DNA of 64,000 nucleotides from Fusicatenibacter sp. (lineage in GTDB: Bacteria; Bacillota; Clostridia; Lachnospirales; Lachnospiraceae). The stretch lies in the NCBI GenBank assembly GCA_050872605.1, contig JBNMHD010000009.1; one strand, given 5' to 3'. The position numbers were made by a program, and so were the translations under genes. Shown piece by piece: positions 60 through 39,692 of the stretch. Within the stretch, counting starts at the first letter, position 1. Every line of letters starts with the position of its first letter. The notes beneath the pieces are model-generated. The model was not told where the DNA came from and searched no databases. It saw only the letters and a program-made list of their open reading frames with translations.

Positions 60-3212
<3,153 letters not shown>

Positions 3213-3392
3213 CTATCTTCTTTTATCCAGATTGGTGTTCCTTTTTTGCTTTCCTGTGATATAATACATCTGTGGATTTCCAGAAGATTTATGCAGTTAC
3301 CTTATGATTTAGTATAAAACACTGCACGTGGATGAGAAATAGTTGATCTGGTGTTTCTTTTATCCAAAATGGGAAAGTAAAGGAGAAGGCGT

Positions 3393-4262
3393 ATGATACC
3401 GGAATATCTGCTTGCAAAAATCAAAAAGAGCGATGTCATCTATCGCTGTATTGGAAATGAAATGAAAAACGGGATTCTGGCATGCGGTTTTATGCGGAAA
3501 GAAACGGCGGACCGCTCCCAGTACCATTTTTCGAATGAATATTACAGCTGTTTTGTGCTGCTGCGCGGGAACGGAGAATATATTGCCGAGGACGGCACCT
3601 CCTATCCGCTGCAGACGGGAAGTCTGGTCCAGCGTCTGCCAGGCGTGCCGCATTCCACACGCGTTGATCCAGACGGGAAATGGCTGGAATTTTTTATCTC
3701 GATTGGGAAGCCGTTTTTTGAATCGTTCTGCTCGCTTTCTGTGCTAAACCGCGAGCCGGTGTTAAAAACGGAGCTGCTTCCCGGTGATCTCGAGCGGTAT
3801 CAGAAACTTCTGCAGTCGCTGAAGGCCACACCGGACAGTCTGCTTCCTTTACAGATTCCGGAGCTGCAGACGGAGATTCTCCGGATGTACGGTTACCATG
3901 CGCACCGGGTAAACCTGCAGCGTGACCCGATCGAGGCCGCCTGCGATGCACTCTCCCAGAATCTTGACGGGGAGATTTCTCTTGAGGAACTCGCTCAGTC
4001 ACTTCAGATCGGTTATGAGACGTTTCGAAAAATATTTAAAAAACAGACCGGCGTCTCTCCTGCACGGTACCGCACCGGGAAGAAAATGGAGCAGGCCCGT
4101 ATTCTTCTCGAGGGCGGCGTACCGATGAAGGAAATTGCCGGTCTGGTAGGATATGGCGATGTCTATGCATTCAGCAAACAGTTCTCCCGTTTTTTCGGAT
4201 TCCCGCCTGGAAAGTACCGTTCGCGTTTTCAGTCGGATACGGCTGATTTAGAACAGTTTTAA
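3393..4262 (+). CDS. AraC/XylS-family transcriptional regulator, divergent from lacZ
   Basis: 289 aa. N-terminal cupin-like half and C-terminal double HTH ('ISLEELAQSLQIGYETFRKIFKKQTGVSPARYR', 'IAGLVGYGDVYAFSKQFSRFFGFPPGKYR'). AAGGAG RBS. Confidence 0.85.
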   Translation: MIPEYLLAKIKKSDVIYRCIGNEMKNGILACGFMRKETADRSQYHFSNEYYSCFVLLRGNGEYIAEDGTSYPLQTGSLVQRLPGVPHSTRVDPDGKWLEFFISIGKPFFESFCSLSVLNREPVLKTELLPGDLERYQKLLQSLKATPDSLLPLQIPELQTEILRMYGYHAHRVNLQRDPIEAACDALSQNLDGEISLEELAQSLQIGYETFRKIFKKQTGVSPARYRTGKKMEQARILLEGGVPMKEIAGLVGYGDVYAFSKQFSRFFGFPPGKYRSRFQSDTADLEQF

Positions 4263-5537: not shown

Positions 5538-8500
5538 TTACTCTTCATCTTCGTTTTTCTTTCTGCCGCGGAGTTTAAGTCCAAGTCCGCCGGCGCCAAG
5601 AGATGCAACGGCCATGCTTACCCATCCCCAGATGTTGGTTACATCACCAGTCTTTGCATTATCACTCTTCTTGGAAGTAGATGTATTGGATACATTGCTG
5701 CTTGCAAGCGGAGTCGAAGTTGCTTTCGGCGTGCTGGCCGGGGTCTTGGTCGGCTGTGCCGCAGGTGTTGTAGTCGGAGCAGTCGTCGGCGTTGTAGTCG
5801 GCGTTGTTGTAGGCGTGGTGGTTGGAGTAACAGTTGGAATCTCAGTTGGTGTTACGGTCGGAGTTTCCGTTGGGGTAACAGTCGGAGTCTCGGTAGGTGT
5901 TACAGTTGGGGTTTCCGTCGGGGTAACAGTCGGAGTCTCAGTCGGTGTTACGGTTGGGGTTTCTGTAGGAGCCGGGGTTGGCGTATCTGTTGCTGCTTTT
6001 ACAAGTGCTTCAATAGCTGCATTCAGATGCTCGGCTGCCTCATCGACCGCTGCCTGCGTATGTTTTGCTTCCAGTTCTTCTTTCGCTTCGGAAAGCTCGG
6101 TCTGCATGCTTGCCCAGGATTCTGCGGTGTAATCAGCCTCATTCAGTGCCTCTGCTTTTGCAATCGCTGCTTCCAGAGCTTCCGTACTCTGTACCGGATC
6201 ATCTTTTACAATGTTCTCATTGGTTGCCTGGAATTTGTAGGTTACATCTGCATAACCAAGTGCATGCATGGTGATCGTCCAGTATCCGGTTCCGTCAGTT
6301 CCTTCCGGAAGCTGGCAGCGTACCGAATCGGTCAGTCCGAGCTGGATTCCCATAGATTTGTGCATCCAGTTATCTGCGGCAAATTTCGTTCCGAAGGTGC
6401 GGAGTGCATTGGTATAGGTATCATCATTTCCATAGTAGGTCCAGGTTACACTCTGCATATTAGCGCCAAGGTCACCATAATCCTTATTCAGGTCTACACG
6501 AAGGAACTCGCCGAAGGAACCGTTTGCTTCCTGAACGGTCAGGCCAGCATCTTCTGCTGATGGAGCTGTCTTCAGTGCCTGATCTTTGATTCCGGATTCA
6601 CTTCCAACTGTTCTTGCAGAGAAGGAGAAGCTTCCATCTTCGTTTTTCACTGCCGTTTTCAGTCCGTTGGTGTTCTCTGTTACATTAGCAACAAGGCCGG
6701 TGTAGCCGCTCAGTTTACCCTCGGAGAAACCGCCATTCAAAATTCCGCCGTTTTCTACAACTGCATATTTCTGGCAGAATGCTTCATAATCATCCTCAGC
6801 TACTTTAACTGGAACGTATTTCAATCCGTATACTTCATAATGATCGATATCTTTTGCATCATAGGTTACTGTCTGGCCGTTTGTCAGAACTACCGTTGTT
6901 CTGTCCGTGTAGTAAGCTACTTTGTACTGGGTGCCGTCTTTCATAAAGATAGTAGCATTGCACTGATAGCTTCCTCTGTGGAGACCATGGTTTGTAGTTG
7001 CACGGGTTACGGTATCAAATGCACCTTTATCATACTCGCCTTTCGCATCTACTTCTTTAGATTCCTCCGTACTTCCTGCCTCATATACGCCCTCATTTGC
7101 CCAGTACTCACTCCAGGAAAGACCTGCATATACGTATTTGTAAGTAATCTCTTTCTTTACAAGTGCTTCAATGGCTGCATTCAGATGCTGTGCTGCTTCA
7201 TCCACTGCTGCCTGGGTATGTTTTGCTTCCAGCTCTTCTTTTGCCTCAGCCAGCTCGACCTGCATATTTGCCCAGCTCTCTGCGGTGTAATCAGCCTCAT
7301 TCAGTGCCTCTGCTTTTGCGATAGCTGCTTCCAGAGCTTCTGTACTCTGTACCGGATCCTCTTTTACAATGTTCTCATCGGTTGCCTGGAATTTGTAAGT
7401 TACATCTGCATAACCAAGTGCATGCATGGTGATCGTCCAGTATCCGGTTCCGTCAGTTCCTTCCGGGAGCTGGCAGCGTACCGAATCGATCAGACCCAGC
7501 TGAATTCCCATGGATTTGTGCATCCAGTTATCTGCGGCGAATTTCGTTCCGAAGGTGCGGAGTGCATTCGTATAAGTTGCATCATTTCCATAGTAGGTCC
7601 AGGTTACACTCTGCATATTAGCACCAAGGTCACCATAGTCCTTATTCAGGTCTACACGAAGGAATTCACCAAAGGAACCATTTGCTTCCTGTACCGTCAG
7701 GCCTGCATCTTCTGCGGATGGAGCAGTCTTCAGAGCCTGATCTTTGATTCCGGATTCGCTTCCAGTTGTTCTTGCAGAAAAAGAGAAACTTCCGTCTGCA
7801 TTCTTTGTTGCAGTTTTCAGTCCATTCGTATTCTCTGTTACATCTGCAACAAGACCAGTATATCCGCTCAGTTTGCCCTCAGAGAATCCACCATTTAAAG
7901 TTCCGCCATTTTCTACCACAGCATATTTCTGGCAGAATGCTTCATAATCTTCGGATGCTACTTTGACGGGAACATATTTCAGTCCATATACTTCATAATG
8001 ATCAATATCAGCTGCATTATAAGTTACAGTCTCACCATTCGTCAGAACTACCGTTGTTCTATCGGTGTAATAAGAAACCTGATACTGCGTACCGTCTTTC
8101 ATAAAGATGGTGGCATTGCACTGATAGCTTCCTCTGTGAAGTCCGTGGTTCGTCGTTGCACGCGTTACAGTATCGAAAGCGCCTTTATCATACTCGCCTT
8201 TGGCATCAACAACGCTGGAGCTTGTGGTATCTCCGGCCTGATATACGCCTTCTGCTGCCCAGTACTCTGACCAGGAAAGGCCTGCATACACATATTTGTA
8301 TTCATCCTCTGCAGGTGTTGTGGTAGGCGTTGCCGTTGGGGCTGCTGTAGGAGCAGCTGTAGGAGTCGCCGTTGGGATCGACGCTTTCACAAGCGCTTTT
8401 ACTGCCGTGTTCAATGCGTCTGCTGCGGTATCAACAGCCGTCTGAGACTCTTTTGCAGAAAGAGCCGCCTTTGCTGCGGTAAGTGCGGTCTGAACAGCTT

Positions 8501-9053
8501 TCCAGGAATCTGCGGTATAATCAGTCTCTTTTAATGCTTCAGCAGATGCGATTGCTTTTTCAAGAACTGCAGTATCTACGACAGCTGGAGTTGGAGTTGT
8601 CGTTTTGGCTGCTGCAAGAGCTGCTGTTTTTACTGCTGTAGAGGTTCTGGTTGCACCGGATACGGTATCCCAGCTTTCGATATTCGCAACAGTTGCATCT
8701 TTTCCCTGTAACTGTGCAATAATACCATTAGCTTTTTTGGTGCCGTTTAAGGCTTTGTTAAAATATGATCCATTTTCAGTTGCAACGTAGCCGCTTCCAG
8801 GTGTAACGGAAACATCTGTAAATTTTCCGTCTGCAACGGTCAGTTTAACGTTGACGTCATATTCATTCCATTCATTTTCAGCGTCATCGTCTTCTTCCGT
8901 TCTCGTAACATGAGCGGTAGACTCATAAGTGCCATCTGCCAGCACGCCGCTTGTGGAATCTGCCAGTACAGTTCCCGGGAGCAGGCTCATGGTCATGGAA
9001 GCTGCCATAACGGCGGCTAATGATTTTTTCTGAAGTTCCTTTCTTTTGATCAT
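5538..9053 (-). CDS. sortase-anchored surface protein: signal peptide, FMN-binding domain, FIVAR-like helical domain, 2 x (unassigned ~320-aa module + FIVAR-like domain), Pro/Thr stalk, NAKTG sorting signal
   Basis: 1171 aa with AAGGAGGAA RBS. The N-terminal signal is 'MIKRKELQKKSLAAVMAASMTMSLLPGTVLADS'. The flavinylation-type motif 'DTVSGATRTS' lies at aa 129-138. The C-terminus is NAKTG + hydrophobic segment + 'RGRKKNEDEE'. Confidence 0.9.
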   Translation of the reverse strand: MIKRKELQKKSLAAVMAASMTMSLLPGTVLADSTSGVLADGTYESTAHVTRTEEDDDAENEWNEYDVNVKLTVADGKFTDVSVTPGSGYVATENGSYFNKALNGTKKANGIIAQLQGKDATVANIESWDTVSGATRTSTAVKTAALAAAKTTTPTPAVVDTAVLEKAIASAEALKETDYTADSWKAVQTALTAAKAALSAKESQTAVDTAADALNTAVKALVKASIPTATPTAAPTAAPTATPTTTPAEDEYKYVYAGLSWSEYWAAEGVYQAGDTTSSSVVDAKGEYDKGAFDTVTRATTNHGLHRGSYQCNATIFMKDGTQYQVSYYTDRTTVVLTNGETVTYNAADIDHYEVYGLKYVPVKVASEDYEAFCQKYAVVENGGTLNGGFSEGKLSGYTGLVADVTENTNGLKTATKNADGSFSFSARTTGSESGIKDQALKTAPSAEDAGLTVQEANGSFGEFLRVDLNKDYGDLGANMQSVTWTYYGNDATYTNALRTFGTKFAADNWMHKSMGIQLGLIDSVRCQLPEGTDGTGYWTITMHALGYADVTYKFQATDENIVKEDPVQSTEALEAAIAKAEALNEADYTAESWANMQVELAEAKEELEAKHTQAAVDEAAQHLNAAIEALVKKEITYKYVYAGLSWSEYWANEGVYEAGSTEESKEVDAKGEYDKGAFDTVTRATTNHGLHRGSYQCNATIFMKDGTQYKVAYYTDRTTVVLTNGQTVTYDAKDIDHYEVYGLKYVPVKVAEDDYEAFCQKYAVVENGGILNGGFSEGKLSGYTGLVANVTENTNGLKTAVKNEDGSFSFSARTVGSESGIKDQALKTAPSAEDAGLTVQEANGSFGEFLRVDLNKDYGDLGANMQSVTWTYYGNDDTYTNALRTFGTKFAADNWMHKSMGIQLGLTDSVRCQLPEGTDGTGYWTITMHALGYADVTYKFQATNENIVKDDPVQSTEALEAAIAKAEALNEADYTAESWASMQTELSEAKEELEAKHTQAAVDEAAEHLNAAIEALVKAATDTPTPAPTETPTVTPTETPTVTPTETPTVTPTETPTVTPTETPTVTPTEIPTVTPTTTPTTTPTTTPTTAPTTTPAAQPTKTPASTPKATSTPLASSNVSNTSTSKKSDNAKTGDVTNIWGWVSMAVASLGAGGLGLKLRGRKKNEDEE
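5646..5660 (-). other. cell-wall sorting motif NAKTG (LPXTG variant)
   Basis: aa 1132-1136, followed by the ~20-aa hydrophobic stretch 'VTNIWGWVSMAVASLGAGGLGL' and a basic tail. This is the classical tripartite sortase signal. [SPN]xxTG variants are known in clostridia. Confidence 0.6.
5739..5996 (-). repeat. Pro/Thr-rich stalk: about 6 x 'TETPTVTP' (24-nt period) then 'TTTP' x 4 (12-nt period)
   Basis: Read directly in the translation (aa ~1020-1105) and as a 24-nt periodicity in the DNA. It is in frame within the CDS. Confidence 0.85.
5997..8300 (-). repeat. tandem direct duplication, period 1158 bp (386 aa), two near-identical copies
   Basis: 'acaagtgcttcaat' recurs at 6001 and 7159. 'YKYVYAGLSWSEYW' recurs at aa 252 and 638. 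Long identical nucleotide runs are broken only by scattered substitutions. Confidence 0.9.
8610..8942 (-). other. FMN-binding (FMN_bind-like) domain of the surface protein; predicted flavinylated Thr135 (motif nt 8649-8660)
   Basis: 'DGTYESTAH...VNVKLTVADGKFTDVSV...WDTVSGATRTSTAVKTAALAA' follows the NqrC/RnfG/PplA-type pattern ending in D-x-x-S-G-A-T. Confidence 0.75.
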
Positions 9054-9076
9054 AACTTCCTCCTTTTTCCTTTTCC

Positions 9077-9107
9077 ACAGTTTTGCAGGAAAAACAGGGG
9101 CAAAACT
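9077..9107 (-). promoter_or_regulatory. 5'-UTR stem-loop about 24 nt upstream of the surface-protein start codon
   Basis: Perfect 9-bp stem CAGTTTTGC / GCAAAACTG with a 13-nt loop, lying within the 283-nt AT-rich gap 9054-9336. Confidence 0.4.
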
Positions 9108-9336
9108 GTTGTTTATTATTATATTAGCTTTTGCTAATTAATAATTGTTTTAACTAACTGTAAATTATATTACTAATCCTAGATCGTTTTGTCTAACTCG
9201 CAAGTGGTTATTTTTTCTCAAAAAAGACACAGATTCTCCTTATTGAGTTTTTTTCACTATTTACTTATCTGATTTTTTGAAGTTTGCGGAATGATTTTTG
9301 TTTCCACACAGAAACATTTCTGAAGATATGCAGTGT

Positions 9337-9861
9337 TTACCGCGAAGAACTCTTCCGTCCTTCGCGTTTTACTGCCGAAAGAATGCGGTCCGAAAGGATT
9401 CCGATCAGCATTCCGGTGATGACACCGGCCACGAGAAGGGCCGGCAGATAATAGAACAGTTTGCGGTTCTGCACCACGAAAGCCGCCACGCAGATCTGGG
9501 CAACATTGTGTGTCACGCCGCCTGCAATGCTTACGCCGGTGATACTAAATCCTTTGATGTGTTTCAGCAGAAGCATCACCAGAAAGCTCAAAAGTCCGCC
9601 GGCAAGGCTGTAGAGGATGGACATTCCGTTTCCAAACAGATAGCCCATCAGAAGAATGCGGGCAACGGAAATCATCAGGACTTCCCCTGCCGGAAGGAAA
9701 AAGAGGCCGACAACGACAACCAGATTGGCAACGCCAAGTTTGATGCCGGGAACGCCGAGGTTGATCGGGATTAGTACCTCCACGTAACTGAAAATCATGG
9801 CAAGTGCCATCAGCATGGCGCATAAGGCAATTTTTCTGCTTGCAGTGCGGCTGTCTCTCAT
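9337..9861 (-). CDS. Gx transporter family protein (formerly 'heptaprenyl diphosphate synthase component I'-like)
   Basis: About 174 aa with 5 predicted TM segments and Gly-rich helices ('GVPGIKLGVANLVVVV', 'AGGVTHN'). I chose the ATG at 9861, 9 nt after AAAGGAA; the ORF track starts at a TTG at 9870. Confidence 0.7.
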   Translation of the reverse strand: MRDSRTASRKIALCAMLMALAMIFSYVEVLIPINLGVPGIKLGVANLVVVVGLFFLPAGEVLMISVARILLMGYLFGNGMSILYSLAGGLLSFLVMLLLKHIKGFSITGVSIAGGVTHNVAQICVAAFVVQNRKLFYYLPALLVAGVITGMLIGILSDRILSAVKREGRKSSSR

Positions 9862-9892
9862 AAGTTCCAATTCCTTTCTTTTGCTGGTGCGT

Positions 9893-10276
9893 TTATTTCA
9901 CAATGACATCCGGCGCATCGTCTGTGTCGTCTGATATCGAGCCATCGCTTTCTACCTCCGCCACCAGCTTATGCGGCAGGCACACGATCGTCTCATTCAC
10001 CCGGGAAATCGTACCCTGTCTTTTGCAGTAGCCGTCCGGGCAGTCGGCCTCTTCCATGTGGGCACTTCCATTTTTAATCACGAGGACATTCGTTCCGTGA
10101 TCTGTCTGAATTCTCACGGTCTGATCCTCTGCGAGCAGATACGTTCCGTAAACCTCGCCGTCCACCGTGACTTTCATGGTATTTCCATTTTCCGTTTTCG
10201 GCAGCCGAAGCGCCAGGGCAAGGATTCCGGCCAGGAGCAAAACGGCGCCTGCCAGAATCAGATCTTTTTTCTTCAT
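9893..10276 (-). CDS. NusG domain II-containing membrane-anchored protein
   Basis: 127 aa. N-terminal TM anchor 'LILAGAVLLLAGILALAL', then a small beta-rich domain with 'CPDGYCKRQG...CLPHK'. It is paired with a Gx transporter, which is the usual arrangement. Confidence 0.65.
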   Translation of the reverse strand: MKKKDLILAGAVLLLAGILALALRLPKTENGNTMKVTVDGEVYGTYLLAEDQTVRIQTDHGTNVLVIKNGSAHMEEADCPDGYCKRQGTISRVNETIVCLPHKLVAEVESDGSISDDTDDAPDVIVK

Positions 10277-10297
10277 ACAATTTTCCTTATTCTGAAA

Positions 10298-11170
10298 TTA
10301 GATGCCAGCCCATAACAGCAGTGTCAGCAGGAATACCGCACGGAACAGGGTAAACAGGATTTCATTTCCATGAAGTTCCTTTACTCCGCAGCAGATATTG
10401 CCTTTCGGACACGTATCAATACATTTCTGACACTGGAAACAGTCGCCGGAAATTTCCATGGAACTGTCGGACGGCAGCTCCACCGCAGACGGACACTGTC
10501 TCGTACAGGCGCTGCAGCCGCGGATACAGTTTTCACGTTTCCGGTGCAGGGTGAAAAACGGCAGGATCGGGAGCAGAGAAAAGACAGCTCCCATCGGGCA
10601 CAGGAAACGGCAGAAAAAGCGTTCCTCAAAAAACATGCCGACCAGGATCAGCAGCAGGAGTACAATTCCCGGAACATAAGAGGAAAGCCGGAAATTTCCT
10701 GCATGCAGCATGGAAAAGACATCCCACGGACTCGTTCCTCTGGCTTTCTGATAAACTCCTGCAAAGCAGCAAAGTGCAATCAGAAGCAGAATGCCGTATT
10801 TGAACAGTGCCAGTTTTTTTGCTGTTTCCGGTTTGATGCGTCTGGGCTTCTTTTTACGTTTCTTACAGATTATACCATAAATTGCGTGCATTGCATCCCC
10901 CAGACTTCCAAAAGCGCATGCAAAACCGCAGAAAAATCTGCCAAAAACAATCGTAAATGCACAGACAAGGAGCAGAGCCGACACAAACGCGGTCATTTCG
11001 ATTTTCTCGCCCTGTCCCAGCTGCGTAAAAATGTATTTGACTCCGTTAAATGCAGCAGTGAATACCGACGGAAGAAACAGGAAATATAAAAGCTGGATTC
11101 CGGCGCGCAGGCAGGAAACGATCTGCTTTCTCTTCTTTGCCGGCAATTTGGATAAGTCTAAATTTTTCAT
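10298..11170 (-). CDS. NapH-like polytopic 4Fe-4S membrane protein (polyferredoxin)
   Basis: 290 aa. Two membrane CxxxC motifs ('GRFFCGFACAFG', 'RFFCRFLCPMG') and two ferredoxin motifs ('CIRGCSACTRQCP', 'CFQCQKCIDTCP'). The start codon lies 1 nt after the upstream gene's stop. Confidence 0.8.
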   Translation of the reverse strand: MKNLDLSKLPAKKRKQIVSCLRAGIQLLYFLFLPSVFTAAFNGVKYIFTQLGQGEKIEMTAFVSALLLVCAFTIVFGRFFCGFACAFGSLGDAMHAIYGIICKKRKKKPRRIKPETAKKLALFKYGILLLIALCCFAGVYQKARGTSPWDVFSMLHAGNFRLSSYVPGIVLLLLILVGMFFEERFFCRFLCPMGAVFSLLPILPFFTLHRKRENCIRGCSACTRQCPSAVELPSDSSMEISGDCFQCQKCIDTCPKGNICCGVKELHGNEILFTLFRAVFLLTLLLWAGI

Positions 11171-11171
11171 G

Positions 11172-11660
11172 TTATTTCTCCGCCTTTTCTATTGCTTCCT
11201 GCGCCGCATTTTTGATGCCGGTGGAGCTGAAGGTTGCTCCGCTTATCGTATCAACATCGGCGGACTGTGCCTCAAGAATCTTTGGAATGATCGCCTCCGC
11301 GTTTGACAGATACGCACTGTCCTCGCCGTCGGCGGATGTGATGGCAAGATCGGTAATCTGGCCGCCCTCTACAGTTACTTCAACTGCAATGGTGCCGCCG
11401 AAGCCGTCAGCCTCACCGTCATACGTGCCGTCCACGTACTGCCCTTCTGCTTCTGCTGCTTCATCCGCGCCCGTATCCGCCGTGTTGGATGCAGCTGCGG
11501 CGGCCTGCAGGTTTTCCTTCTGCAGCTGGGTCGTCTCAAGCTCTGCCGAAAGCCGTGCGATCTGATCCTCTTTGTCTCTTTTGTCGAGCACCGTGTTGTA
11601 GCCGATCAGAACAGCGGCAATGACAGCGATATTCAAAAAACGAACAATCAATTGTCTCAT
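11172..11660 (-). CDS. membrane-anchored single FMN-binding-domain protein
   Basis: 162 aa. TM anchor 'FLNIAVIAAVLIGY', a coiled/Ala-rich linker, and the domain 'YVDGTYDGEADGFGGTIAVEV...VDTISGATFSSTGIKNAAQEAI'. The SGAT motif is at nt 11232-11243. Confidence 0.85.
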   Translation of the reverse strand: MRQLIVRFLNIAVIAAVLIGYNTVLDKRDKEDQIARLSAELETTQLQKENLQAAAAASNTADTGADEAAEAEGQYVDGTYDGEADGFGGTIAVEVTVEGGQITDLAITSADGEDSAYLSNAEAIIPKILEAQSADVDTISGATFSSTGIKNAAQEAIEKAEK

Positions 11661-11672
11661 CTGTTTTCCCCT

Positions 11673-13739
11673 TTATTGCGTTACTTTCGCAGCGTCCAGC
11701 GCATTCCGGCATGCCTCAAGAATGGCTTTTGAGGAGCAGGTTGCGCGGGAAACGGTATCAATGTTCTCAAGCGTTCCTGTTTCCAGAATCTGAGCGGAAA
11801 CGCCTTTGATTTTGGAGGTTCCCTCGGATGCGCGGCGGATGTAGGAGGCATTCTGACTATCTCCGTACCCGGTGATGTTGCTTAATGCTACGATTTTATC
11901 GTTTTCAATCGTTACCGTTACGGAAAGCTGATAAGCAGTAAAATCTTCATCTTCATCCGGTTCGCAGACGGCAATCGCTGTGTATTCGCCGTCCTGATAG
12001 ATCTTTTGTTCCGGAGTTTCCGTCGGCGTTGGGGTTGGCGTCTCAGTTGGCTCCGGGGTTTCGGTCGGGGTTGGAGTTTCCGTCGGTGTCGGAGTTACCG
12101 TTGGCGTCGGGGTTGGATTTTTCTTTTCTTCAGTTACGCGTTCTGCCTCTTTTAAAGCTTCCTCGATTGCCGCAAGAATTCCCCTGGAGCTGTAGGTTGC
12201 GCCGGAAACAGTGTCAACTTCCAGTGTCTGGTTTTTCACAACGTCCTTTGCCGTCTGTTTTGCGCGTTTTAAGAATGCTTCGTCATCTTCACTCTCGGTC
12301 ACGAGAATGGCCTTGATCGTCTCATCCTGAATGACAACTGCCGTTGTAATGTCTCCCAGATAGCCCTCACCGGTTCCGTAGTAAATGCCTTCCTCGTATG
12401 GGAATTTTCCTTCCGGAACCGCTGTGGTTCCGCCGCTGTTCGTTCCGTTATCCGGAACGGTTTCGCCGTTTGTTGCTTTCTTCGCATTTTCCAGTGCCTG
12501 TTTTACTGCGTTCTGGATGCCGCGGGAGCTGTAGGTTGCGCCGGATACGAGATCCACATCGGTTTTCTGTCCGTCTACGATGCGGTCCGCTACGACTTTG
12601 GCACGGTTGAAGAATGTCTCGTCATCTTCGTTTTCCAGAATCAGTACCGCTTTGATCGTCTGATCCTGCAGGGCTACCGCCACTTTGATGTCTCCCTGAA
12701 AACCGGCGGCTGTGCCGTAATAAATGCCGTCCTTATACGGGAAACTTCCCTTGGATGCGGATGAGTTGTTGCTCTGACTGTTTCCATTGCCGTTGTTCTG
12801 GCTGCTGTTTCCATTGTTTGTATTATTCTGGCTGCTTCCATTTGTGCCGGAAGATCCATTCACCGCCGCCTGGCTTAACGCGCTGCGTACGGCTTCGATA
12901 ATACCGCGGGAGCTGTACGTTGCACCTGAAACGGTATCCACATTGGTGCTCTGTGTCGAGATAATCGTGGAAATCAGGGAAGAAGCGCTGGAAAGATAGC
13001 TCGGTGTATCACTGTTTTCCACAATATTAATCGAGGTGATTTTTCCGCCGCTGACAACAACACAGACTTTCATCGTACCGCCAAAGCCCGTTCCGCTTCC
13101 GTAATACGTTCCGTCCCGGTATGCGGCCGGTTCTTCGATTTTCGATACGGTAACACTTCCGCCGGAAGATGCAGCGCCTATCGCACCAGATGCAGATGCC
13201 GGTTCTGAGGTATCTGTCTGACCGGTCAGTGCATTTTTTACGGCCGCCAGGATTCCTTTAGAACTGAAGGTTGCACCGGATACCGTGTCCACATCCACAC
13301 TTTGGGATGCGATGATGCGGTCAATGACACCCTTGGCACGGTTCAGGAAGGCTGCGTCCTCACCCGGAGCACTGACAATCGAGATAGACTGAATGGTTTT
13401 GTCCTTTAATACCACAGATACGGTAATTGTTCCGCCAAAACCAATTCCGCTTCCCTCATACGTTCCGTCTGCCAGTTCAAAACTGCCGGAGCCGACTGCC
13501 GCAGCAGTTTCTGCTTCGGTATCAGTTGTCTTCTTTTTCGTATCCTCTTTCTTTTTATTGTCGTCTTTCTTTTCCGCTGTATCGGTATCCCGTCCCGGCT
13601 CCGGTGTCACCAGTGCCTCCGGCTGCTCTACGGCATAAACCGGTGCAGTATATCCATTCAGCGAAATGCCCGCGCAGGCCGCTACAATAACCGCTGCAAG
13701 AGCCGGTGCAAATGCTGTCAGTTTTTTCCATTTTCCCAT
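11673..13739 (-). CDS. secreted or lipid-anchored protein with five tandem FMN-binding domains (four canonical, one variant)
   Basis: 688 aa. The N-terminal signal has a possible lipobox, 'IVAAC'. SGAT motifs lie at nt 13269-13280, 12918-12929, 12534-12545 and 12195-12206, and an SRAT variant at 11739-11750. The domains are separated by K/D/T-rich, S/G-rich, N/S/G-rich and P/T-rich linkers. Confidence 0.9.
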   Translation of the reverse strand: MGKWKKLTAFAPALAAVIVAACAGISLNGYTAPVYAVEQPEALVTPEPGRDTDTAEKKDDNKKKEDTKKKTTDTEAETAAAVGSGSFELADGTYEGSGIGFGGTITVSVVLKDKTIQSISIVSAPGEDAAFLNRAKGVIDRIIASQSVDVDTVSGATFSSKGILAAVKNALTGQTDTSEPASASGAIGAASSGGSVTVSKIEEPAAYRDGTYYGSGTGFGGTMKVCVVVSGGKITSINIVENSDTPSYLSSASSLISTIISTQSTNVDTVSGATYSSRGIIEAVRSALSQAAVNGSSGTNGSSQNNTNNGNSSQNNGNGNSQSNNSSASKGSFPYKDGIYYGTAAGFQGDIKVAVALQDQTIKAVLILENEDDETFFNRAKVVADRIVDGQKTDVDLVSGATYSSRGIQNAVKQALENAKKATNGETVPDNGTNSGGTTAVPEGKFPYEEGIYYGTGEGYLGDITTAVVIQDETIKAILVTESEDDEAFLKRAKQTAKDVVKNQTLEVDTVSGATYSSRGILAAIEEALKEAERVTEEKKNPTPTPTVTPTPTETPTPTETPEPTETPTPTPTETPEQKIYQDGEYTAIAVCEPDEDEDFTAYQLSVTVTIENDKIVALSNITGYGDSQNASYIRRASEGTSKIKGVSAQILETGTLENIDTVSRATCSSKAILEACRNALDAAKVTQ
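12009..12119 (-). repeat. Pro/Thr/Glu linker 'PTPTPTVTPTPTETPTPTETPEPTETPTPTPTETPE'
   Basis: Low-complexity in-frame repeat between FMN domains 4 and 5. A second, Asn/Ser/Gly-rich linker lies at about 12753-12857. Confidence 0.8.
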
Positions 13740-13741
13740 GG

Positions 13742-14905
13742 TTATGTATCACCGTCTTTCCTGATAATGTTTGTCTCATGATCGGATGTGAAATCATCGG
13801 CGATTCCTTCGGTTACGTACAGAACGCCGTTCTCATCCTCCAGAATGGTGTCGAATTCATCGCTGTGCGCACGCCAGTATTCGGCCGCCTTATCCTTTCC
13901 CATGATGAAAAGAGAAGTCGAAAGGCCATCCGCCAGTGTTCCGTCCGCGCTTACGATCGTCACAGATACCAGACCGTTATTCGCCGGATGACCAGTTGCC
14001 GGATCAATGATGTGATGGTATCTCACACCGTCCTGTTCGAAATACCGCTCATATCCACCCGAAGTGATGACTGCCCGGTCAGCTGTTGAGAGAATGCCGA
14101 GATAATCGTCCTCTGCTTCCGGACTCTGCACGGCAACACGCCATTTGCTGCCATCCGTTTTCGTGCCGACAACCTGAACGTTTCCTCCGAGGTTGATGAG
14201 CCCGCTCGTCACACCGCATTCCCGGTAAATATCCGCGATTCTGCCGGACGTATAACCCTTTGCAATTCCGCCGAAGTCGATTTTCATGCCGCTCTTTGCG
14301 AAGCTGATGGATGAATTTTCTTTGTCGTAGACAATATTATTGGCATCGGTCAGTGGAAGGAGACTTTCGATCGTCTCATCCGAAGGAACGGTATAATTTC
14401 CAGTCGTAAAGCCCCAGGCATCCATGATCGGGTAAATTGCGATGTCGAAAACACCGTTTGTGCTGTCATACAGATCCAGGGAGCGTTCCAACAGATAGGT
14501 GGTATCCTCCGATAAGGTTCCGCCGCCGTTCGCATTGATCTGCGCGACCTCACTCGTTTCCTCTCCAGTCGACAGGAGCGCATCCAGCCGCTCAATCTCC
14601 TGCTGTGCCTGATCTACCGCCTTCTCTGCGTTTGGACCGTAGGCAGTTACCGTCATGTACGTATCCATCGCAAAAATATCACGGCTGCTCGACGCATCGG
14701 CGGCATCGGAAGAAGATGTGGATGACGCGGATTCCTGCGTGGAATTCTCTTCCGAAGCGTCAGAACTGCTCGAAGACTCCGAAACAGACACCGGCTGTGT
14801 CTGACTTTCACTGCTCTCCGGCTGCGCTGCTGTCCCCGTACCGGAACATCCGCCGACCGTCATCACCATGGCAAGACAAAATGCTGCAACAATTTTCTTT
14901 TTCAT
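13742..14905 (-). CDS. apbE: FAD:protein FMN transferase (ApbE family) lipoprotein
   Basis: 387 aa. Lipobox 'MTVGGC', a Ser/Glu-rich tether, and ApbE-type motifs ('DIAIYPIMDAWGF', 'DFGGIAKGY', 'VITSGGYERYF', 'HHIIDPATG'). The stop codon lies 2 nt before the next gene's start. Confidence 0.9.
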   Translation of the reverse strand: MKKKIVAAFCLAMVMTVGGCSGTGTAAQPESSESQTQPVSVSESSSSSDASEENSTQESASSTSSSDAADASSSRDIFAMDTYMTVTAYGPNAEKAVDQAQQEIERLDALLSTGEETSEVAQINANGGGTLSEDTTYLLERSLDLYDSTNGVFDIAIYPIMDAWGFTTGNYTVPSDETIESLLPLTDANNIVYDKENSSISFAKSGMKIDFGGIAKGYTSGRIADIYRECGVTSGLINLGGNVQVVGTKTDGSKWRVAVQSPEAEDDYLGILSTADRAVITSGGYERYFEQDGVRYHHIIDPATGHPANNGLVSVTIVSADGTLADGLSTSLFIMGKDKAAEYWRAHSDEFDTILEDENGVLYVTEGIADDFTSDHETNIIRKDGDT

Positions 14906-15085: not shown

Positions 15086-15129
15086 ATACAAAAAGCCCCC
15101 ACAGCCGCATTGCTGCGGCCGCGGGGGCT
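15086..15129 (-). terminator. rho-independent terminator of pflB
   Basis: GC-rich stem GCCCCCGCGGCCGC / GCGGCTGTGGGGGC with a 6-nt loop, followed by TTTTTGT on the minus strand, 23 nt after the pflB stop. Confidence 0.85.
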
Positions 15130-15151
15130 TTAGAAATAACATTTTCAGAAA

Positions 15152-31856: not shown

Positions 31857-34142
31857 TTATCTGTTTTTGTTAAAATTAATCAGGCATCCTGCTTTTACGA
31901 TCTTCTTTTCATTTTCTGTCATATCGGCAATGTATAAGGACAGTTCTTTTGGATGGCTGCCAAGTACATAGGCTTTGATTTCCTTCATATCACCATCCAG
32001 CGCGCTTCGAATGCCCGGGACGAAAATGTAGTCTCCTACTTCAAATTCCGGTTCGTCTTTCATCTGGAACGGAATCATACCCCAGTTCATGACGTTGGAG
32101 CGGTAACGTTTTGTCGCGTATTCCTTCGTGATATTGGCAAGGCCGCCGATGACTCTCTGACAGCTTGCTGCCTGCTCTCTGGCAGAACCGTCTCCCGGCT
32201 TTACCGCATAGATCATGCTTCCGATTTCCGTCTCCTGCGGCTGAATTTCTTCCTGCCCCGGAAGCTGCCGGATCTGTTCAAAAATTTCTTTTAACTGCGG
32301 CTCTTCCTCCAGCACATTTTTTCCTGCGGTTCTCGCCTTTTCCAGACGGTCTACTTCTTTGGAGCGGCCCACATATTTCGGATCTCGCCGCGACAGGGTA
32401 AACTCGGCCAGTCCGAGCGGATTGGAACGGTAGGATGACGTTTCGCCGGATGGAATCAGTTCATCGGTCGTCGTAACCGGATCGAGAATCTTCGAGCAGA
32501 CCTTCAGCAGAATGTTATCGGTTAAAGGACTCATCGCCGGCCAGTCTTTGATGTTCGGGCCGTAAACGAGCGCTTTCTCTGCATCTCCTTTTCCGTAACC
32601 GTAATAAACTCTCTTATCATATACCGACGAATCGAAGCTGTACTCCGGTACATCGCCCCAGCAGTCCATGGTTTCCGCAGAAGTCAGGATTCCTCCGTTT
32701 GCAGCGGTTGCTGCGATCGAACGGGCGTCCATCAGGGCAACGGCAGACATCTGTCCATTTCCCGGCTTGCTTCCCTCGCGGTTCGGGAAGTTTCTGGTCG
32801 TATGGCGGATGCTCAGGCCATCGTTGCACGGTGTATCTCCGGCGCCAAAGCATGGTCCGCAGAACGCCGTACGGATAATTGCTCCCGCTTCCATAAGGTC
32901 TGTGATATAACCCTGTCGTGTCAGGTTGATAAAGACAGGCTGAGAGGATGGATAGACTGCCAGGCTGAAGGTGTCGTTTCCGATATCTTTTCCTTTCAGC
33001 GCGTGGGCCGCTTCCACAACGTTCGTATAGTTGCCGCCCGCACAGCCTGCAATGACCGCCTGCTGTACCTGCAGTCCTTTTTCCGTCACTTTGTCCACCA
33101 GATGAAGTGCTGCTTTTCCCTGGGAAATCTTCTGTGCTTCTTTTTCCACATCCGCAAGAATGTCTTTGAGATTTGCATTCAGTTCATCAATCTCATAGGT
33201 ATTGCTTGGATGGAACGGAAGTGCGATCATTGGTTTTACGGTACTTAAATCCACAGAAACAACACCGTCATAATATGCCACATCAGCCGGATTCAGCTCT
33301 TTGTAATCATCTCCTCTTCCGTGCAGATTCAGGAAGTTTCTCGTATCCTCGTCCGTTCTCCAAATGGAAGAAAGGCAGGTCGTTTCTGTTGTCATTACGT
33401 CGATTCCGTTTCGGAAATCCGTTGTCATGGACGATACTCCAGGTCCTACAAACTCCATGACTTTGTTTTTGACGTATCCGTTTTTGAACACAGCACCGAT
33501 GATGGCAAGTGCAATATCCTGCGGTCCCACCCAGGGATTCGGCTTTCCGTCAAGATAAATTGCGATAACCTGTGGACATGCGACATCGTACGTGTCACAG
33601 AGAAGCTGTTTTACCAGCTCACCGCCGCCCTCACCGATCGCCATTGTTCCCATTGCGCCGTACCGGGTATGGGAATCCGATCCGAGAATCATCTTTCCGC
33701 ATCCGGCGTACATTTCTCTCATAAACTGATGAATGACTGCGATGTGCGGCGGAACATAGATGCCGCCGTATTTCTTCGCTGCGGAAAGGCCAAATACATG
33801 GTCATCTTCGTTGATCGTTCCGCCGACGGCACACAGCGAGTTATGGCAGTTGGTCAGCACATACGGAATTGGAAATTTTTCCATTCCGGACGCTTTTGCC
33901 GTCTGAATGATACCTACAAACGTGATATCGTGAGACGTCATTGCATCAAATTTCAGCTTGAGATTCTGCATATTTCCGGAGGTATTATGTGCCTCCATGA
34001 TGCCATAGGCAATGGTTCCCTTTCTCGCTTCTTCTTTTGTGACCTTCTTTCCCGTCATAGCTTCCACTTTCGCTGCTTCTGCTTCCGGCACAAGCGTGGT
34101 TCCGTTTACCAGGTATGCGCCTGTATCATATAACTTTACCAT
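31857..34142 (-). CDS. aconitase-family Fe-S hydro-lyase, long (761-aa) paralog of unknown substrate
   Basis: 'GSDSHTRYG', '[10 protein letters not shown]' and '[10 protein letters not shown]' match aconitase/IPM-isomerase cluster and substrate motifs. 'AGCAGGN' replaces the usual 'GSCTN'. A swivel domain sits at the C-terminus. Confidence 0.75.
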
Positions 34143-34165
34143 GGCGTTCTCTCCTTTATCTTTAT

Positions 34166-34324
34166 TTATGCCTGTTCTACATAATCATCGATCATTTCAA
34201 ACAGTTCTTTTTCTTTGTTTTTCGCCTCATTTTTCTGTTCGCGGCTTCTTTTGTCCTGCTCCTTTTTATATAGATTCATCACGCAGGCTCCAAAAATCGT
34301 CTGATAACTGATACTCTGCTTCAT
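34166..34324 (-). CDS. possible 52-aa Lys/Glu-rich mini-protein (below the ORF-track cutoff)
   Basis: ATG preceded by AAGGAGAA at 5 nt. The translation is [52 protein letters not shown]. It fills the otherwise empty citF-hydratase gap. Confidence 0.35.
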
Positions 34325-34368
34325 ACGCTTCTCCTTTTCCTCTGCGGTATTTTTAGGTGACTGAGGCT

Positions 34369-34410
34369 GCAGACCCGGGGCTGTGTGTGTTTTAGCCGTT
34401 CCGGGTCTGC
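34369..34410 (-). promoter_or_regulatory. intercistronic GC-rich stem-loop after citF
   Basis: Perfect 10-bp stem GCAGACCCGG / CCGGGTCTGC with a 22-nt loop and no U-tract, so it is not a canonical terminator. Confidence 0.5.
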
Positions 34411-34427
34411 TCTATCATGGCAACAAA

Positions 34428-35993: not shown

Positions 35994-35994
35994 C

Positions 35995-36894
35995 TTATAA
36001 GTCCCCCTTGTATACGCCGGACGCTTTTGCCAGTTCAATCACGCGTTTTGCTCCGTCATAAAATGCGATGTCGATCATTTTGCCGTCCACGGTAAATACG
36101 CCGATACCCATGGCTTTCTTTTCGTCAATCTCTTTTACAACCTTTTCCGAGAAAATGATTTCCTTTTCCGTCGGGGTATAAACATTATGTACTACGGAAA
36201 TCTGCCGCGGGTTGATGATGGATTTTCCGTCAAAGCCCATCATCTTGATCATGCGCACCTCTTTTTCAAACGCTTCCATGTCATCCAGATTGGTAAACAC
36301 GGTATCAAAGCACTGTACCTTCGCTGCTCTTGCCGCGATGATCATCAGCTGTCTGGCTCCTGCAAATTCCACGCCGGTTCCGGAAATCGTCGTCTGAAGG
36401 TCTTTCGAATAATCTCCGCCGCTTAAGGCGATGCCGAACAGCCGCTCAGAGGACTGACAGATTTCCAGCGCATTCATAATGCCCATGGCCGATTCCAGCG
36501 CCGCCATAATCAGGGTTCTTCCTTCCGGAATTCCAAATTCTGCTTCTGCTTTTCTGATCTCTTCTTCTACCATTCTGACATCTTTTGCGCTTTCGGTTTT
36601 TGGGATCCGGATAGAATCTGCACCGCCTGCCACACTGGCACGGATATCTTCTTTCCAGTATTCGGAATCAAGTCCGTTGATCCGCACAACGCGCTCCACA
36701 CCGTGGTAGTCAATTTCCTGCAGTGCATGATACAGAGAATATCTCGCTGCATCTTTTTCCTTTTCTGCTACGGCATCTTCCAGATCCAGCATAATGGAAT
36801 CCGGTTTGTAGATATACGGGTCTTTGATGAGTCCCGGTTTCTGACAGTTCAGAAACATCATGGTTCTTCTTAATCTCTTTTTGTTCGGATTCAT
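35995..36894 (-). CDS. citE: citrate lyase beta subunit (citryl-CoA lyase)
   Basis: 'RLRRTMMF...IMLDLEDAV' is the CitE/HpcH-type N-terminus. ATGA start/stop overlap with citD. Confidence 0.9.
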   Translation of the reverse strand: MNPNKKRLRRTMMFLNCQKPGLIKDPYIYKPDSIMLDLEDAVAEKEKDAARYSLYHALQEIDYHGVERVVRINGLDSEYWKEDIRASVAGGADSIRIPKTESAKDVRMVEEEIRKAEAEFGIPEGRTLIMAALESAMGIMNALEICQSSERLFGIALSGGDYSKDLQTTISGTGVEFAGARQLMIIAARAAKVQCFDTVFTNLDDMEAFEKEVRMIKMMGFDGKSIINPRQISVVHNVYTPTEKEIIFSEKVVKEIDEKKAMGIGVFTVDGKMIDIAFYDGAKRVIELAKASGVYKGDL

Positions 36895-37196
36895 GATCGA
36901 ATGACACCTCCCCATGGTAAATCAGATGTTTTTTCATTGGAACGGTATACAGCACATTCCACACGCGCTTTTAGGGTACAGTCCAGTGCGCCTTTGTCCA
37001 CGATATGGACTCTTGCATCACTTACTTCCAGGCGTTCCAACGTTTCCAGTACAACCTCCGTAATTTTTCTTCCGTACTGCTGGATCACGCTGCTGTCCAG
37101 TTCCAGTGTTATGCCGCCTTCTTCATTCGGCTCTATCGTGACCATGGCATCACTGGATTCCAGGGTTCCTGCTACTGCCGGTTTTTCAATCTTCAC
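36891..37196 (-). CDS. citD: citrate lyase acyl carrier protein (gamma subunit)
   Basis: '(M)KIEKPAVAGTLESSDAMVTIEP' matches E. coli CitD, including the prosthetic-group Ser14. GTG start 7 nt after AGGAGGT. Confidence 0.9.
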   Translation of the reverse strand: MKIEKPAVAGTLESSDAMVTIEPNEEGGITLELDSSVIQQYGRKITEVVLETLERLEVSDARVHIVDKGALDCTLKARVECAVYRSNEKTSDLPWGGVIRS

Positions 37197-37288
37197 TTTT
37201 TTTACCTCCTGTATGTCCTGTCTGTTTTTATCTTGTCTCTATTGTAAGCCCTCAAGGCTCCCACGTATAATTACTTAAAAGAATGATG

Positions 37289-38545: not shown

Positions 38546-38557
38546 ATTCCGGTCCTC

Positions 38558-39601: not shown

Positions 39602-39692
39602 TTTTATGACCTCCTTTTTGCAGTTTGCACGTTCGCTGTTACTGCTTTCTGTTAAGAAAATCATATAAGATCCGCATGTCAAACGGAAATTC

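Follow-up and report, generated by a model that had tools for sequence, protein, structure and literature searches.

How do electrons that reach the outer face of the membrane leave a flavin-based relay whose locus encodes no recognizable terminal reductase? This question is raised by a flavin locus of seven genes, all on the minus strand (5538-14905), found in a 64,000-nucleotide stretch of DNA from Fusicatenibacter sp. (hereafter the window). An earlier note, made from the sequence alone, described it as an ApbE-centred extracytosolic flavinylation locus forming a membrane-to-wall flavin relay, regarded it as unusual, and left both the electron donor and acceptor undefined and one surface module unassigned. 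All seven genes were found at the coordinates claimed, and Pfam supports the FMN_bind, ApbE, NapH-like (Fer4_5), NusG_II and Hpre_diP_synt_I assignments of their products. The first six, from apbE to the Gx transporter gene, are separated by only 2, 12, 1, 21 and 22 nt (31 nt for the last gap if the Gx protein starts at the ATG at codon 4), in agreement with the tight spacing of 1-31 nt initially described. A strong terminator-like hairpin on the minus strand (15092..15131; an 18-bp stem, 12 of its pairs GC, plus a T tail) lies 3' of the upstream pyruvate formate-lyase gene and sets the 5' limit of the apbE transcription unit. The seventh gene, encoding a surface protein, is preceded by the 283-nt AT-rich gap already noticed (9054..9336, minus strand; 29.7% GC versus 49.4% across the locus). 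This gap carries a promoter-like site (TAGACA-17-TAATAT at 9195-9167) and a strong RBS, AAGGAGGAAG, and no terminator-like site was found in it on the minus strand. As it holds a promoter-like site, the surface protein may be regulated separately.

The product of apbE (13742..14905, minus strand) is an FAD:protein FMN transferase (PF02424, E=1.7e-89, 300.3 bits, cutoff 25.6). Its assignment holds at the family level and not as an E. coli-type equivalog, because its score against NCBIfam PRK10461 (131 bits) is under the cutoff of 498. Its N-terminus, MKKKIVAAFCLAMVMTVGGC, fits a lipobox pattern: a hydrophobic segment (residues 5-23) is followed by a lipobox-like TVGG-C, as a pattern match only, and then by a long Ser/Glu-rich tether. 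The protein is thus predicted to be a lipoprotein located outside the cytosol.

The FMN_bind domains that this enzyme could modify are seven in number and are distributed over three proteins, with six canonical D-x-x-S-G-A-T motifs and one SRAT variant; the Thr of the motif is the predicted site of covalent FMN attachment. The largest set belongs to a multi-flavinylated protein (MFP) of 688 aa (11673..13739, minus strand), in which a signal or anchor segment precedes five FMN_bind stretches (Pfam, E=1.6e-68) separated by low-complexity linkers. The five tandem domains of the earlier note are therefore recovered by Pfam, but one of their features had been missed: four domains carry D-x-V-S-G-A-T (13269-13289, 12918-12938, 12534-12554 and 12195-12215), whereas the fifth carries D-T-V-S-R-A-T (11739-11759), with Arg in place of Gly. 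This variant is found in the last domain of 31 of 66 homologous MFPs, versus 1/172 for the other MFP domains. The second protein (162 aa; 11172..11660, minus strand) has one N-terminal TM segment (residues 3-21) and a single FMN_bind domain (PF04205, 52 bits) with the motif DTISGAT at 11232-11252. The third is the surface protein described below.

Only 1 nt separates the gene of the 162-aa protein from that of a polytopic Fe-S protein of 290 aa (10298..11170, minus strand), which matches Fer4_5 (PF12801, 37.3 bits, cutoff 22) and has four to six hydrophobic segments; its neighbours are FMN_bind and ApbE genes. It carries two CxxxC(P)-type motifs (CGFAC and CRFLCP), as initially reported. Of the two ferredoxin motifs CxxCxxCxxxCP also reported, one is canonical and the other is CxxxCxxCxxxCP. 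According to the positive-inside rule, its Cys-rich segment (residues 209-270) lies on the cytoplasmic side. NapH/MauN proper was rejected (TIGR02163, 71.2 bits versus a cutoff of 213; PRK09477, 67.9 versus 234), and no NapG or NapAB partner gene, nor any other Nap gene, was detected among the Pfam-scanned ORFs of the window. Together, the 162-aa FMN protein and the NapH-like protein would form a split NosR/PceC-type module. Like NosR and PceC, they combine an extracytosolic FMN_bind domain, a polytopic domain with CX3CP motifs and a cytoplasmic 2x[4Fe-4S] domain. Unlike in these proteins, which act in N2O and organohalide respiration, FMN_bind is here a separate 162-aa product and neither NosZ nor a reductive dehalogenase accompanies it; the NCBIfam NosR match is 43 bits versus a cutoff of 1000.

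The locus thereby joins a known class. Meheust et al. (2021, eLife) defined NapH-like flavinylation systems operationally as a multi-TM Fe-S protein matching PF12801 (or K19339) within a flavinylation-associated cluster, and described 539 NapH-like clusters with a separate FMN_bind gene (PMC8238504). The present locus falls within this definition, and its MFP is an extracytosolic protein with more than one FMN_bind domain, which is the criterion for a multi-flavinylated protein. It resembles these clusters in having a PF12801 protein with a separate FMN_bind gene, ApbE, an extracytosolic protein with several FMN_bind domains and further FMN_bind proteins, as well as a large FIVAR wall protein, and a relay spanning the wall was likewise proposed for them; FIVAR/SLH wall proteins had already been described in MFP clusters (PMC8238504). 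It is therefore a further instance of the NapH-like and multi-flavinylated systems catalogued in 2021.

Two genes of the locus can be related to flavin supply. The Gx transporter (Hpre_diP_synt_I; 9337..9870, minus strand) matches PF07456 (E=6e-40, 137.1 bits, cutoff 30), the Pfam family by which EetB is defined (PMC9973259). FAD binding and an export phenotype were demonstrated for EetB of Listeria (PMC9973259). The Gx protein thus belongs to the EetB family and is predicted to be an ECF-S-like FAD exporter. The adjacent gene (9893..10276, minus strand) encodes a NusG_II-domain protein with one TM segment (PF07009, E=3.5e-31, 108 bits). As a NusG_II protein adjoins the PF07456 gene in the eetA position of the E. 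faecium EET cluster, this gene order suggests that it is the EetA equivalent. The earlier statement that EetA/EetB equivalents are missing must hence be abandoned for EetB and probably for EetA. No ECF-T or ECF-A gene was identified among the Pfam-scanned ORFs of the window (among them all ORFs of the locus and its flanks); the L006 homologue of the Gx protein is fused to CbiQ, an ECF-T domain.

The absences noted for reductases and donors were borne out: genes for Ndh2, Rnf/Nqr, a fumarate-reductase-type enzyme, a cytochrome or a molybdoenzyme are absent from the locus, and none of them is conserved across 80 related loci. Clustering of all ORFs of these 80 loci yielded neither a further conserved family nor a known reductase. 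We likewise agree that the donor and the acceptor are undefined. Membership in the Listeria-type EET class, defined operationally by a membrane Ndh2 (K03885) in the cluster, was rejected, as no Pyr_redox_2 protein occurs in the region 1-22 kb of the window; the sole one in the whole window (Fer4_20 + Pyr_redox_2, 44881-46164) lies about 30 kb away. The locus shares with the EET locus of Listeria monocytogenes (FmnB/PplA/EetA/EetB/Ndh2/DmkA/DmkB/FmnA) an ApbE-type transferase, extracytosolic FMN_bind protein(s) and the PF07456 and NusG_II proteins for FAD supply. However, it lacks Ndh2, the demethylmenaquinone genes and FmnA, and the membrane would be crossed by a NapH-like Fe-S protein. Furthermore, whereas PplA has two FMN_bind domains, seven are present here on three proteins and the chain would end in a different kind of unit.

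This unit is found in the wall-anchored protein of 1171 aa (5538..9053, minus strand), which consists, in order, of a signal peptide, FMN_bind, FIVAR, Tp47-like unit 1, FIVAR, Tp47-like unit 2, FIVAR, a Pro/Thr linker and NAKTGD. Its FMN_bind domain (8607-8858; 26.7 bits versus a cutoff of 22) carries DTVSGAT. The earlier description of a sortase-type surface protein opening with an FMN-binding domain thus holds for the domain; LPXTG is absent from the protein, and the C-terminus carries NAKTGD instead (sorting-like signal, 5541-5657), followed by a hydrophobic segment and the basic tail RGRKK, downstream of the Pro/Thr linker (5724-5993). This C-terminus appears sortase-like but non-canonical. 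The variant x[VAP]KTG recurs in 88 of 269 relatives, and we take the NAKTG signal to resemble the non-LPXTG sortase motifs of Clostridioides.

The module that could not be assigned proves assignable: it consists of two tandem Tp47-like units (7356-8309 and 6198-7151, minus strand), each combining PF14889 (PBP-Tp47_a; E=2e-122, 405 bits, two copies) and PF14888 (PBP-Tp47_c; E=5e-157, 518 bits, two copies). The two units are 92% identical, a tandem duplicate with a spacing of 1158 nt. The assignment is corroborated by a sequence match to Tp47 of Treponema pallidum (TP0574, PDB 1O75) and by an AF2 model (pLDDT 84) that aligns to 1O75 by Foldseek (E=2e-13, TM 0.58). The module shares with Tp47 both Pfam domains (a and c) and the blocks D-x-V-S/T-R-A-T-x-x-H-G and T-E-N-T-N-G-L-K-T / Y-G-T-K-x-x-A-D-x-W, at about 24-35% identity. 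Tp47 itself is a single-unit periplasmic lipoprotein, whereas here two tandem units are fused to FMN_bind in a Gram-positive wall protein. No established physiological function is known for the Tp47 family, decades after the protein was characterized.

Far from being unusual, this gene set was found in 62 species or more, in agreement with the description of the class in 2021. Of the species loci, 43 are flanked by at least 8 kb on either side; in 40 of these, genes for ApbE, a NapH-like protein and an MFP (at least three FMN_bind domains) lie within 10 kb, while EetB is present in 34 and EetA in 33. At least three gene orders were observed, in Lachnospiraceae, Coriobacteriia and Thomasclavelia. 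In Lachnospira eligens, ApbE is followed by a different polytopic membrane protein fused to FMN_bind and then by the Tp47-like gene. FMN_bind and Tp47 are fused in one chain in 63 of 150 family representatives (50% identity), and Pfam independently detects the fusion in 21/46. The link to the relay is weakened by Anaerostipes, in which a Tp47-like gene lies away from any flavin genes and adjoins a two-component system. Taken as a whole, these data suggest that the Tp47-like module is a conserved terminal partner of the relay, which is new here: in the main text of Meheust et al., the wall proteins are "large unannotated" ones and Tp47 is unmentioned (PMC8238504).

We therefore consider it likely that this locus specifies an extracytosolic electron-transfer system of the NapH-like and multi-flavinylated kind, which depends on ApbE and ends in Tp47-like units. 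What the analysis establishes directly are the domain identities, the motifs, the conserved gene association and the domain fusions; the relay initially proposed fits every domain assignment as well as the published NapH-like/MFP model (PMC8238504). The following scheme can be drawn. The EetB-family ECF-S-like protein would export FAD, probably with its NusG_II (EetA-family) partner and with ECF-T/A encoded elsewhere. The lipoprotein ApbE would then attach FMN from the exported FAD to the motif Thr of the FMN_bind domains. Electrons from a cytoplasmic or membrane donor would be carried to the outer face by the NapH-like protein and the co-translated membrane-anchored FMN protein, and across the cell wall by the five-domain MFP. 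The 1171-aa wall protein would take them at its own FMN_bind domain and hand them to its two Tp47-like units, for which association with flavin genes suggests a redox role. These units would be the system-defining terminal element, where the acceptor is either reduced or bound.

The Tp47-like units could, however, be non-redox, since the flavinylated lipoprotein of Listeria is itself the terminal donor. They would then be a wall scaffold, an adhesin or a ligand-binding module that positions the relay, and exposed FMN_bind flavins would reduce soluble or insoluble acceptors directly, like PplA. In 46 Tp47-family proteins, the module is always accompanied by adhesin- or wall-type domains (FIVAR 17, Shr-like_HID 12, SLH 8, Big_2 7, fn3 5); it has no cofactor signature and no invariant Cys, and besides Tp47, Foldseek gives only weak Ig/fn3-like matches. 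Yet about 40 polar or aromatic residues (D, E, R, H, K, W, Y) are invariant across 50%-identity clusters of the modules, a pattern that fits an active or cofactor site better than a scaffold. The pairing of the Tp47-like module with flavin genes is also strict, whichever membrane module is present, and this speaks for a specific functional partner. A non-redox role is possible but doubtful.

A second proposal would refine the electron-transfer system ending in Tp47-like units rather than exclude it: these units would themselves be ApbE substrates, with FMN on the Thr of D-x-V-[ST]-R-A-T. This candidate flavinylation-type or cofactor site is D-T-V-T-R-A-T in unit 1 (8154..8174, minus strand), with a duplicate in unit 2 (6996..7016, minus strand). 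It matches the ApbE motif D-x-x-[ST]-G-A-[ST] save for Arg instead of Gly; its D, V, R, A and T are each at least 98% conserved across 114 modules, T. pallidum Tp47 bears it as DAVSRAT, and it lies in a loop, the only segment with pLDDT <50 in an otherwise confident AF2 model. The same Arg swap is seen in the last MFP domain (31/66), a genuine FMN_bind fold encoded at these loci, but such Arg-variant domains could equally be non-flavinylated. A Gly-to-Ala change keeps about 50% flavinylation (PMC12052999), and DUF2271 and DUF3570 were recognized as ApbE substrates by equal logic. In Anaerostipes hadrus, ApbE-MFP-FMN-NapH is followed immediately not by Tp47 but by another, unannotated domain (YVLMNIPY...D-x-V-[ST]-S-A-T). 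A local alignment of this domain with the N-terminal part of Tp47 takes in the motif (hhalign E=3e-4), but with a probability of only about 40%, and Foldseek did not link its model to 1O75. Moreover, Tp47 was not picked out when Deka et al. searched the T. pallidum genome for the motif (PMC4436053), and the strict conservation could stem from a catalytic or structural function that has nothing to do with flavin. We consider flavinylated Tp47-like units unlikely. The broader proposal that Tp47-like domains, including syphilis Tp47, are a new terminal redox class with a Thr flavinylated by ApbE/Ftp, so that the wire would end in a flavinylated Tp47-type reductase with the YVLMNIPY domain as a sister solution, is speculative to the same degree.

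Still less probable is that the system reduces ferric iron or haem outside the cell in order to acquire iron or haem, instead of supporting energy-conserving respiration. Shr-like haemoglobin-interacting domains occur in 12 of the 46 Tp47-family proteins, and flavinylation clusters colocalize with iron transporters according to the abstract of Meheust et al. (PMC8238504). However, iron transporter genes are not conserved among the 80 loci and the 1171-aa protein of the window has no HID domain. Moreover, surface proteins of Clostridia may carry HID/DUF1533-type domains as general modules. Finally, that the Tp47-like units are peptidoglycan-active enzymes remodelling the wall for the relay, as the Pfam family names (PBP-Tp47) and the historical annotations of Tp47 as a penicillin-binding protein (1O75 entry) and carboxypeptidase would have it, is highly improbable, as Tp47 reportedly lacks a classical PBP fold in its structure paper, Foldseek finds no PBP or other fold relative of the module, nothing wall-synthetic occurs among the 80 loci and the FMN_bind fusion would be hard to explain.

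Among the abundant Lachnospiraceae and Coriobacteriia of the human gut, NapH-like/MFP systems are a common feature. What is added here is the identity of their sole conserved non-flavin extracellular component, the Tp47-like module, which becomes a defined candidate for the business end of such systems. In T. pallidum, the only proteins other than TP0171 that bear the motif include TP0572, whose ORF number is two away from that of Tp47 (PMC4436053). The Tp47 family gains a concrete and cheap test of function via ApbE/Ftp and the FMN_bind proteins TP0171 and TP0572. If Tp47 is flavinylated, the syphilis antigen would join ApbE-dependent extracytosolic electron transfer as a terminal redox domain.

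All seven genes listed in the earlier note were recovered as ORFs with Pfam matches on the minus strand between 5538 and 14905, and profile searches upheld their ApbE, FMN_bind, NusG_II and Hpre_diP_synt_I assignments. The ApbE protein (13742-14905; PF02424, E=1.7e-89) has a lipobox-like N-terminus. The other genes of the first group encode a 688-aa multi-flavinylated protein (MFP) with five FMN_bind stretches (E=1.6e-68), a 162-aa protein with one transmembrane segment and one FMN_bind domain, a 290-aa polytopic protein that matches Fer4_5 (PF12801) above threshold, and then a NusG_II protein and a Hpre_diP_synt_I ('Gx') protein. The intervals between these six genes measure 2, 12, 1, 21 and 22 (or 31) nt. 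The seventh gene follows after 283 nt of 29.7% GC, in which a strong RBS and a promoter-like site occur, and encodes a 1171-aa protein with a signal peptide and with DTVSGAT in its FMN_bind domain. As the 290-aa protein matches the NapH/MauN and NosR models of NCBIfam only below their curated cutoffs, it is NapH-like rather than NapH; the NCBIfam matches of the locus proteins were all sub-threshold and brought no further naming. Some details differ from the initial description. The five FMN_bind domains of the MFP are present, but the motif of the fifth is DTVSRAT, not SGAT; both ferredoxin motifs of the NapH-like protein exist, but only one is canonical; and the C-terminus of the 1171-aa protein, described as sortase-type, shows NAKTGD, a hydrophobic segment and a basic tail, but no LPXTG. 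This NAKTGD-type variant recurs among its relatives.

Between the locus and the pyruvate formate-lyase gene upstream of it lies a strong terminator-like hairpin (15131-15092). The syntenic flanks share 87–92% DNA identity with Fusicatenibacter saccharivorans. On the downstream side, DUF3877 and nitroreductase genes, an AraC regulator gene (3393-4262) and a divergent minus-strand gene for a LacZ-type beta-galactosidase (60-3167; NCBIfam E=4e-269) are syntenic only within Fusicatenibacter and are not counted in the system, since they are not conserved across loci. An 855-aa ORF without family hits (750-3317, plus strand) is a shadow ORF of lacZ. Further along the window, the region 31857-46164 is a tricarboxylate-utilisation island with no relation to the flavin locus; it encodes a citrate lyase (CitF, CitE-like), two aconitase-family proteins, an isocitrate/isopropylmalate dehydrogenase, a lactonase, a CitMHS/MatC transporter, a GltD-like Fer4_20/Pyr_redox_2 protein and two LysR regulators.

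The module of the 1171-aa protein that could not be assigned from sequence inspection consists of two tandem PBP-Tp47_a + PBP-Tp47_c units (Pfam E=2e-122 and 5e-157), with FIVAR domains standing between them. The only solved relative of these units by sequence is Tp47 (TP0574), the syphilis antigen of Treponema pallidum (PDB 1O75). An AlphaFold2 model of unit 1 (pLDDT 84, pTM 0.86) matched 1O75 in a Foldseek search (E=2e-13), which returned nothing else significant. The two units are 92% identical in amino acids and about 91% in nucleotides, and result from a recent tandem duplication of Tp47-like and FIVAR sequence (5998-7455, 1158-nt spacing). When the segment 5993-8301 is aligned with the corresponding F. 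saccharivorans locus (L008), both copies map onto a single Tp47 segment, and the central region of the surface-protein locus differs in length between the two genomes.

The Tp47-like family is small, with 371 clusters at 50% identity among 1.84 billion representatives. FMN_bind is found in the same chain as Tp47 in 63 of the best 150 representatives; the architectures among these 150 (F, FMN_bind; T, Tp47) include FT (37), TF (12), FTT (8), FFT (3) and FFFT (2). An independent check with Pfam found FMN_bind in 21 of 46 Tp47-family proteins. Scanning a single genome for each species yielded 310 Tp47-like loci, the best 80 of which belong to gut Lachnospiraceae, Coriobacteriia and Thomasclavelia. 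These were searched with profiles derived from the proteins of the window, the core being defined as ApbE, a NapH-like protein and at least three FMN_bind domains. The core lies within 10 kb in 62 of the best 80 loci. Of the 43 loci flanked by 8 kb or more on each side, 40 have the core, 34 have EetB and 33 have EetA. The Tp47-like loci show at least three gene orders. Lachnospira eligens is arranged differently: apbE is followed by a gene for a polytopic membrane protein fused to FMN_bind, then by an unfused Tp47-like gene; the label 'MsrQ-like' for this polytopic domain, which has no Pfam family, was dropped. A partner shared by the window and L. eligens was also rejected, the 855-aa shadow ORF being dissimilar to the 960-aa protein encoded upstream of apbE in L. 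eligens, as was a 763-aa protein of another comparison locus (L020), which is unrelated to the L. eligens protein.

When all ORFs of the best 80 loci were clustered, neither a known reductase nor any additional conserved family emerged. The earlier note had proposed that the locus would be an ordinary system if its relatives were attached to a known reductase missing from the window. In the 80 loci none is attached to one, so the objection fails; the relatives are attached to a Tp47-like module, which the window also contains. In Anaerostipes, a Tp47-like gene with fn3 (L085:6692-11857) adjoins a histidine kinase gene and a divergent gene for an OmpR-type response regulator; no flavin genes lie beside the Tp47-like genes of this genus, and the two-component system offered no hint of function. 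In Coriobacteriia (Collinsella, Senegalimassilia and Eggerthellaceae; L035, L036, L042, L044, L046, L054, L063–L066 and other comparison loci), the Tp47-like modules are 60–64% identical to that of the window, as close as many Lachnospiraceae modules. Judging from these sequences, transfer of the entire locus between gut phyla is probable.

Meheust et al. (2021) described NapH-like flavinylation clusters, 539 of them with a separate FMN_bind gene, as well as MFPs, clusters holding several FMN_bind proteins, clusters with 'large unannotated proteins' carrying FIVAR, SLH, Rib or LysM, and a relay model across the cell wall (PMC8238504). The window locus shares with these systems the NapH-like protein, the MFP, the multiple FMN_bind proteins and the FIVAR wall protein, and flavinylation of MFPs by ApbE has since been demonstrated. 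The membrane-to-wall flavin relay initially proposed is therefore the published model; it stands, but not as a new system. The locus belongs to a known, uncharacterised kind of flavinylation system and, with the same core in 62 of the best 80 loci, it is widespread rather than unusual. No link between Tp47 and flavinylation was found in the text of Meheust et al. or in the literature searched.

The locus had also been said to lack EetA/EetB equivalents, which is wrong. EetB is defined as Pfam PF07456, the family of the Gx protein, by Rivera-Lugo et al. (2023); it is an FAD-binding, ECF-S-like protein needed for FAD export to the ApbE of Listeria, and eetB is colocalised with eetA in 3,328 genomes and also with apbE and NapH-like systems (PMC9973259). 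In the supplementary entry of Meheust et al. for the extracellular electron transfer cluster of Enterococcus faecium (PMC8238504), a gene for a 139-aa single-transmembrane NusG_II protein lies between ndh2 and the PF07456 gene and, by analogy, can be taken to occupy the eetA position. Together, these data make the Gx protein a member of the EetB family and the NusG_II/Gx pair the probable equivalent of EetA/EetB. The pair would likely supply FAD to ApbE rather than carry electrons. A homologue from a related locus that combines, in one polypeptide, an EetB-family domain with CbiQ (ECF-T) (L006:18611-19999) is consistent with this role and with the assignment of the Gx protein to ECF transporters.

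The motif D-x-V-[ST]-R-A-T-x-x-H-G is essentially invariant over 114 Tp47-like modules, and the corresponding motif of T. pallidum Tp47 is DAVSRAT. Apart from having Arg where the ApbE motif D-x-x-[ST]-G-A-[ST] has Gly, this segment fits that motif, and it is the only part of the unit 1 model with pLDDT below 50. Arg also replaces this Gly (SRAT, SRST or ARAT) in the last FMN_bind domain of 31 of 66 MFPs from two phyla, including that of the window (11739-11759) and its homologues in L008, L010, L037, L042, L046 and L063, versus 1 of 172 other MFP domains. Membrane-anchored single-domain FMN_bind proteins never carry the Arg variant (canonical SGAT in 73 of 74), and half of the FMN_bind domains fused to Tp47 (21/42) have Thr at this position (STAT or TTAT). 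The variation is position-specific. Since DUF2271 and DUF3570 were identified as ApbE substrates by a comparable logic, flavinylation of the terminal modules becomes testable, not established; from the sequences, we regard it as rather unlikely.

A search of 5.8 billion proteins with 146 aa of T. pallidum Tp47, copied exactly from its alignment to 1O75, returned no match; the collection apparently lacks the family's spirochaete branch. According to Deka et al. (2015), only two T. pallidum proteins bear the flavinylation motif: TP0171 (Tp15), which was shown to be flavinylated and, paired with Ftp_Tp (TP0796), is a published positive case, and the integral membrane protein TP0572 (PMC4436053). 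By ORF numbering, TP0572 would be two genes from TP0574; it is the sole link found to the gene context of T. pallidum Tp47.

Many Tp47-type wall proteins carry, along with Tp47 and FMN_bind, an extracellular domain of about 260 aa without Pfam family, which starts with Y-V-L-M-N-I-P-Y-x-x-F-Y and contains D-x-V-[ST]-S-A-T, which is close to the canonical ApbE motif. In Anaerostipes hadrus (protein P0333, L087:10001-11308), this YVLMNIPY domain takes the exact place of Tp47 after ApbE-MFP-FMN-NapH, so that the Anaerostipes flavin core adjoins a YVLMNIPY protein instead of a Tp47-like gene. It also occurs in surface-protein ORFs of L007, L010, L012, L013, L020, L023, L024, L030, L042, L049, L054 and L056. 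At the N-termini, a local alignment links the domain to Tp47, motif included (hhalign E=3e-4, probability about 40%). Global homology is unsupported, because an AlphaFold2 model of P0333 (pLDDT 66.6) matched fn3 only and not 1O75; the local N-terminal likeness remains. The YVLMNIPY domain is a candidate for a new ApbE substrate domain.

The Cys-rich ferredoxin segment of the NapH-like protein is predicted to be cytoplasmic by the positive-inside rule, as is reported for NapH. Electrons could come from a quinol, or from a cytoplasmic carrier, for instance ferredoxin or NAD(P)H, acting through an unlinked partner; ORF clustering found no donor enzyme conserved in the best 80 loci. Many Lachnospiraceae may lack menaquinone biosynthesis, in which case a cytoplasmic donor would be more likely. 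Concerning the acceptor, Shr-like haemoglobin-interacting domains, absent from the window protein, occur in 12 of 46 Tp47 relatives and hint at haem or iron. Electrons could also flow inward. What is new here is the Tp47 assignment together with its tight linkage to ApbE-dependent relays across multiple architectures, which gives the orphan Tp47 family a testable function.
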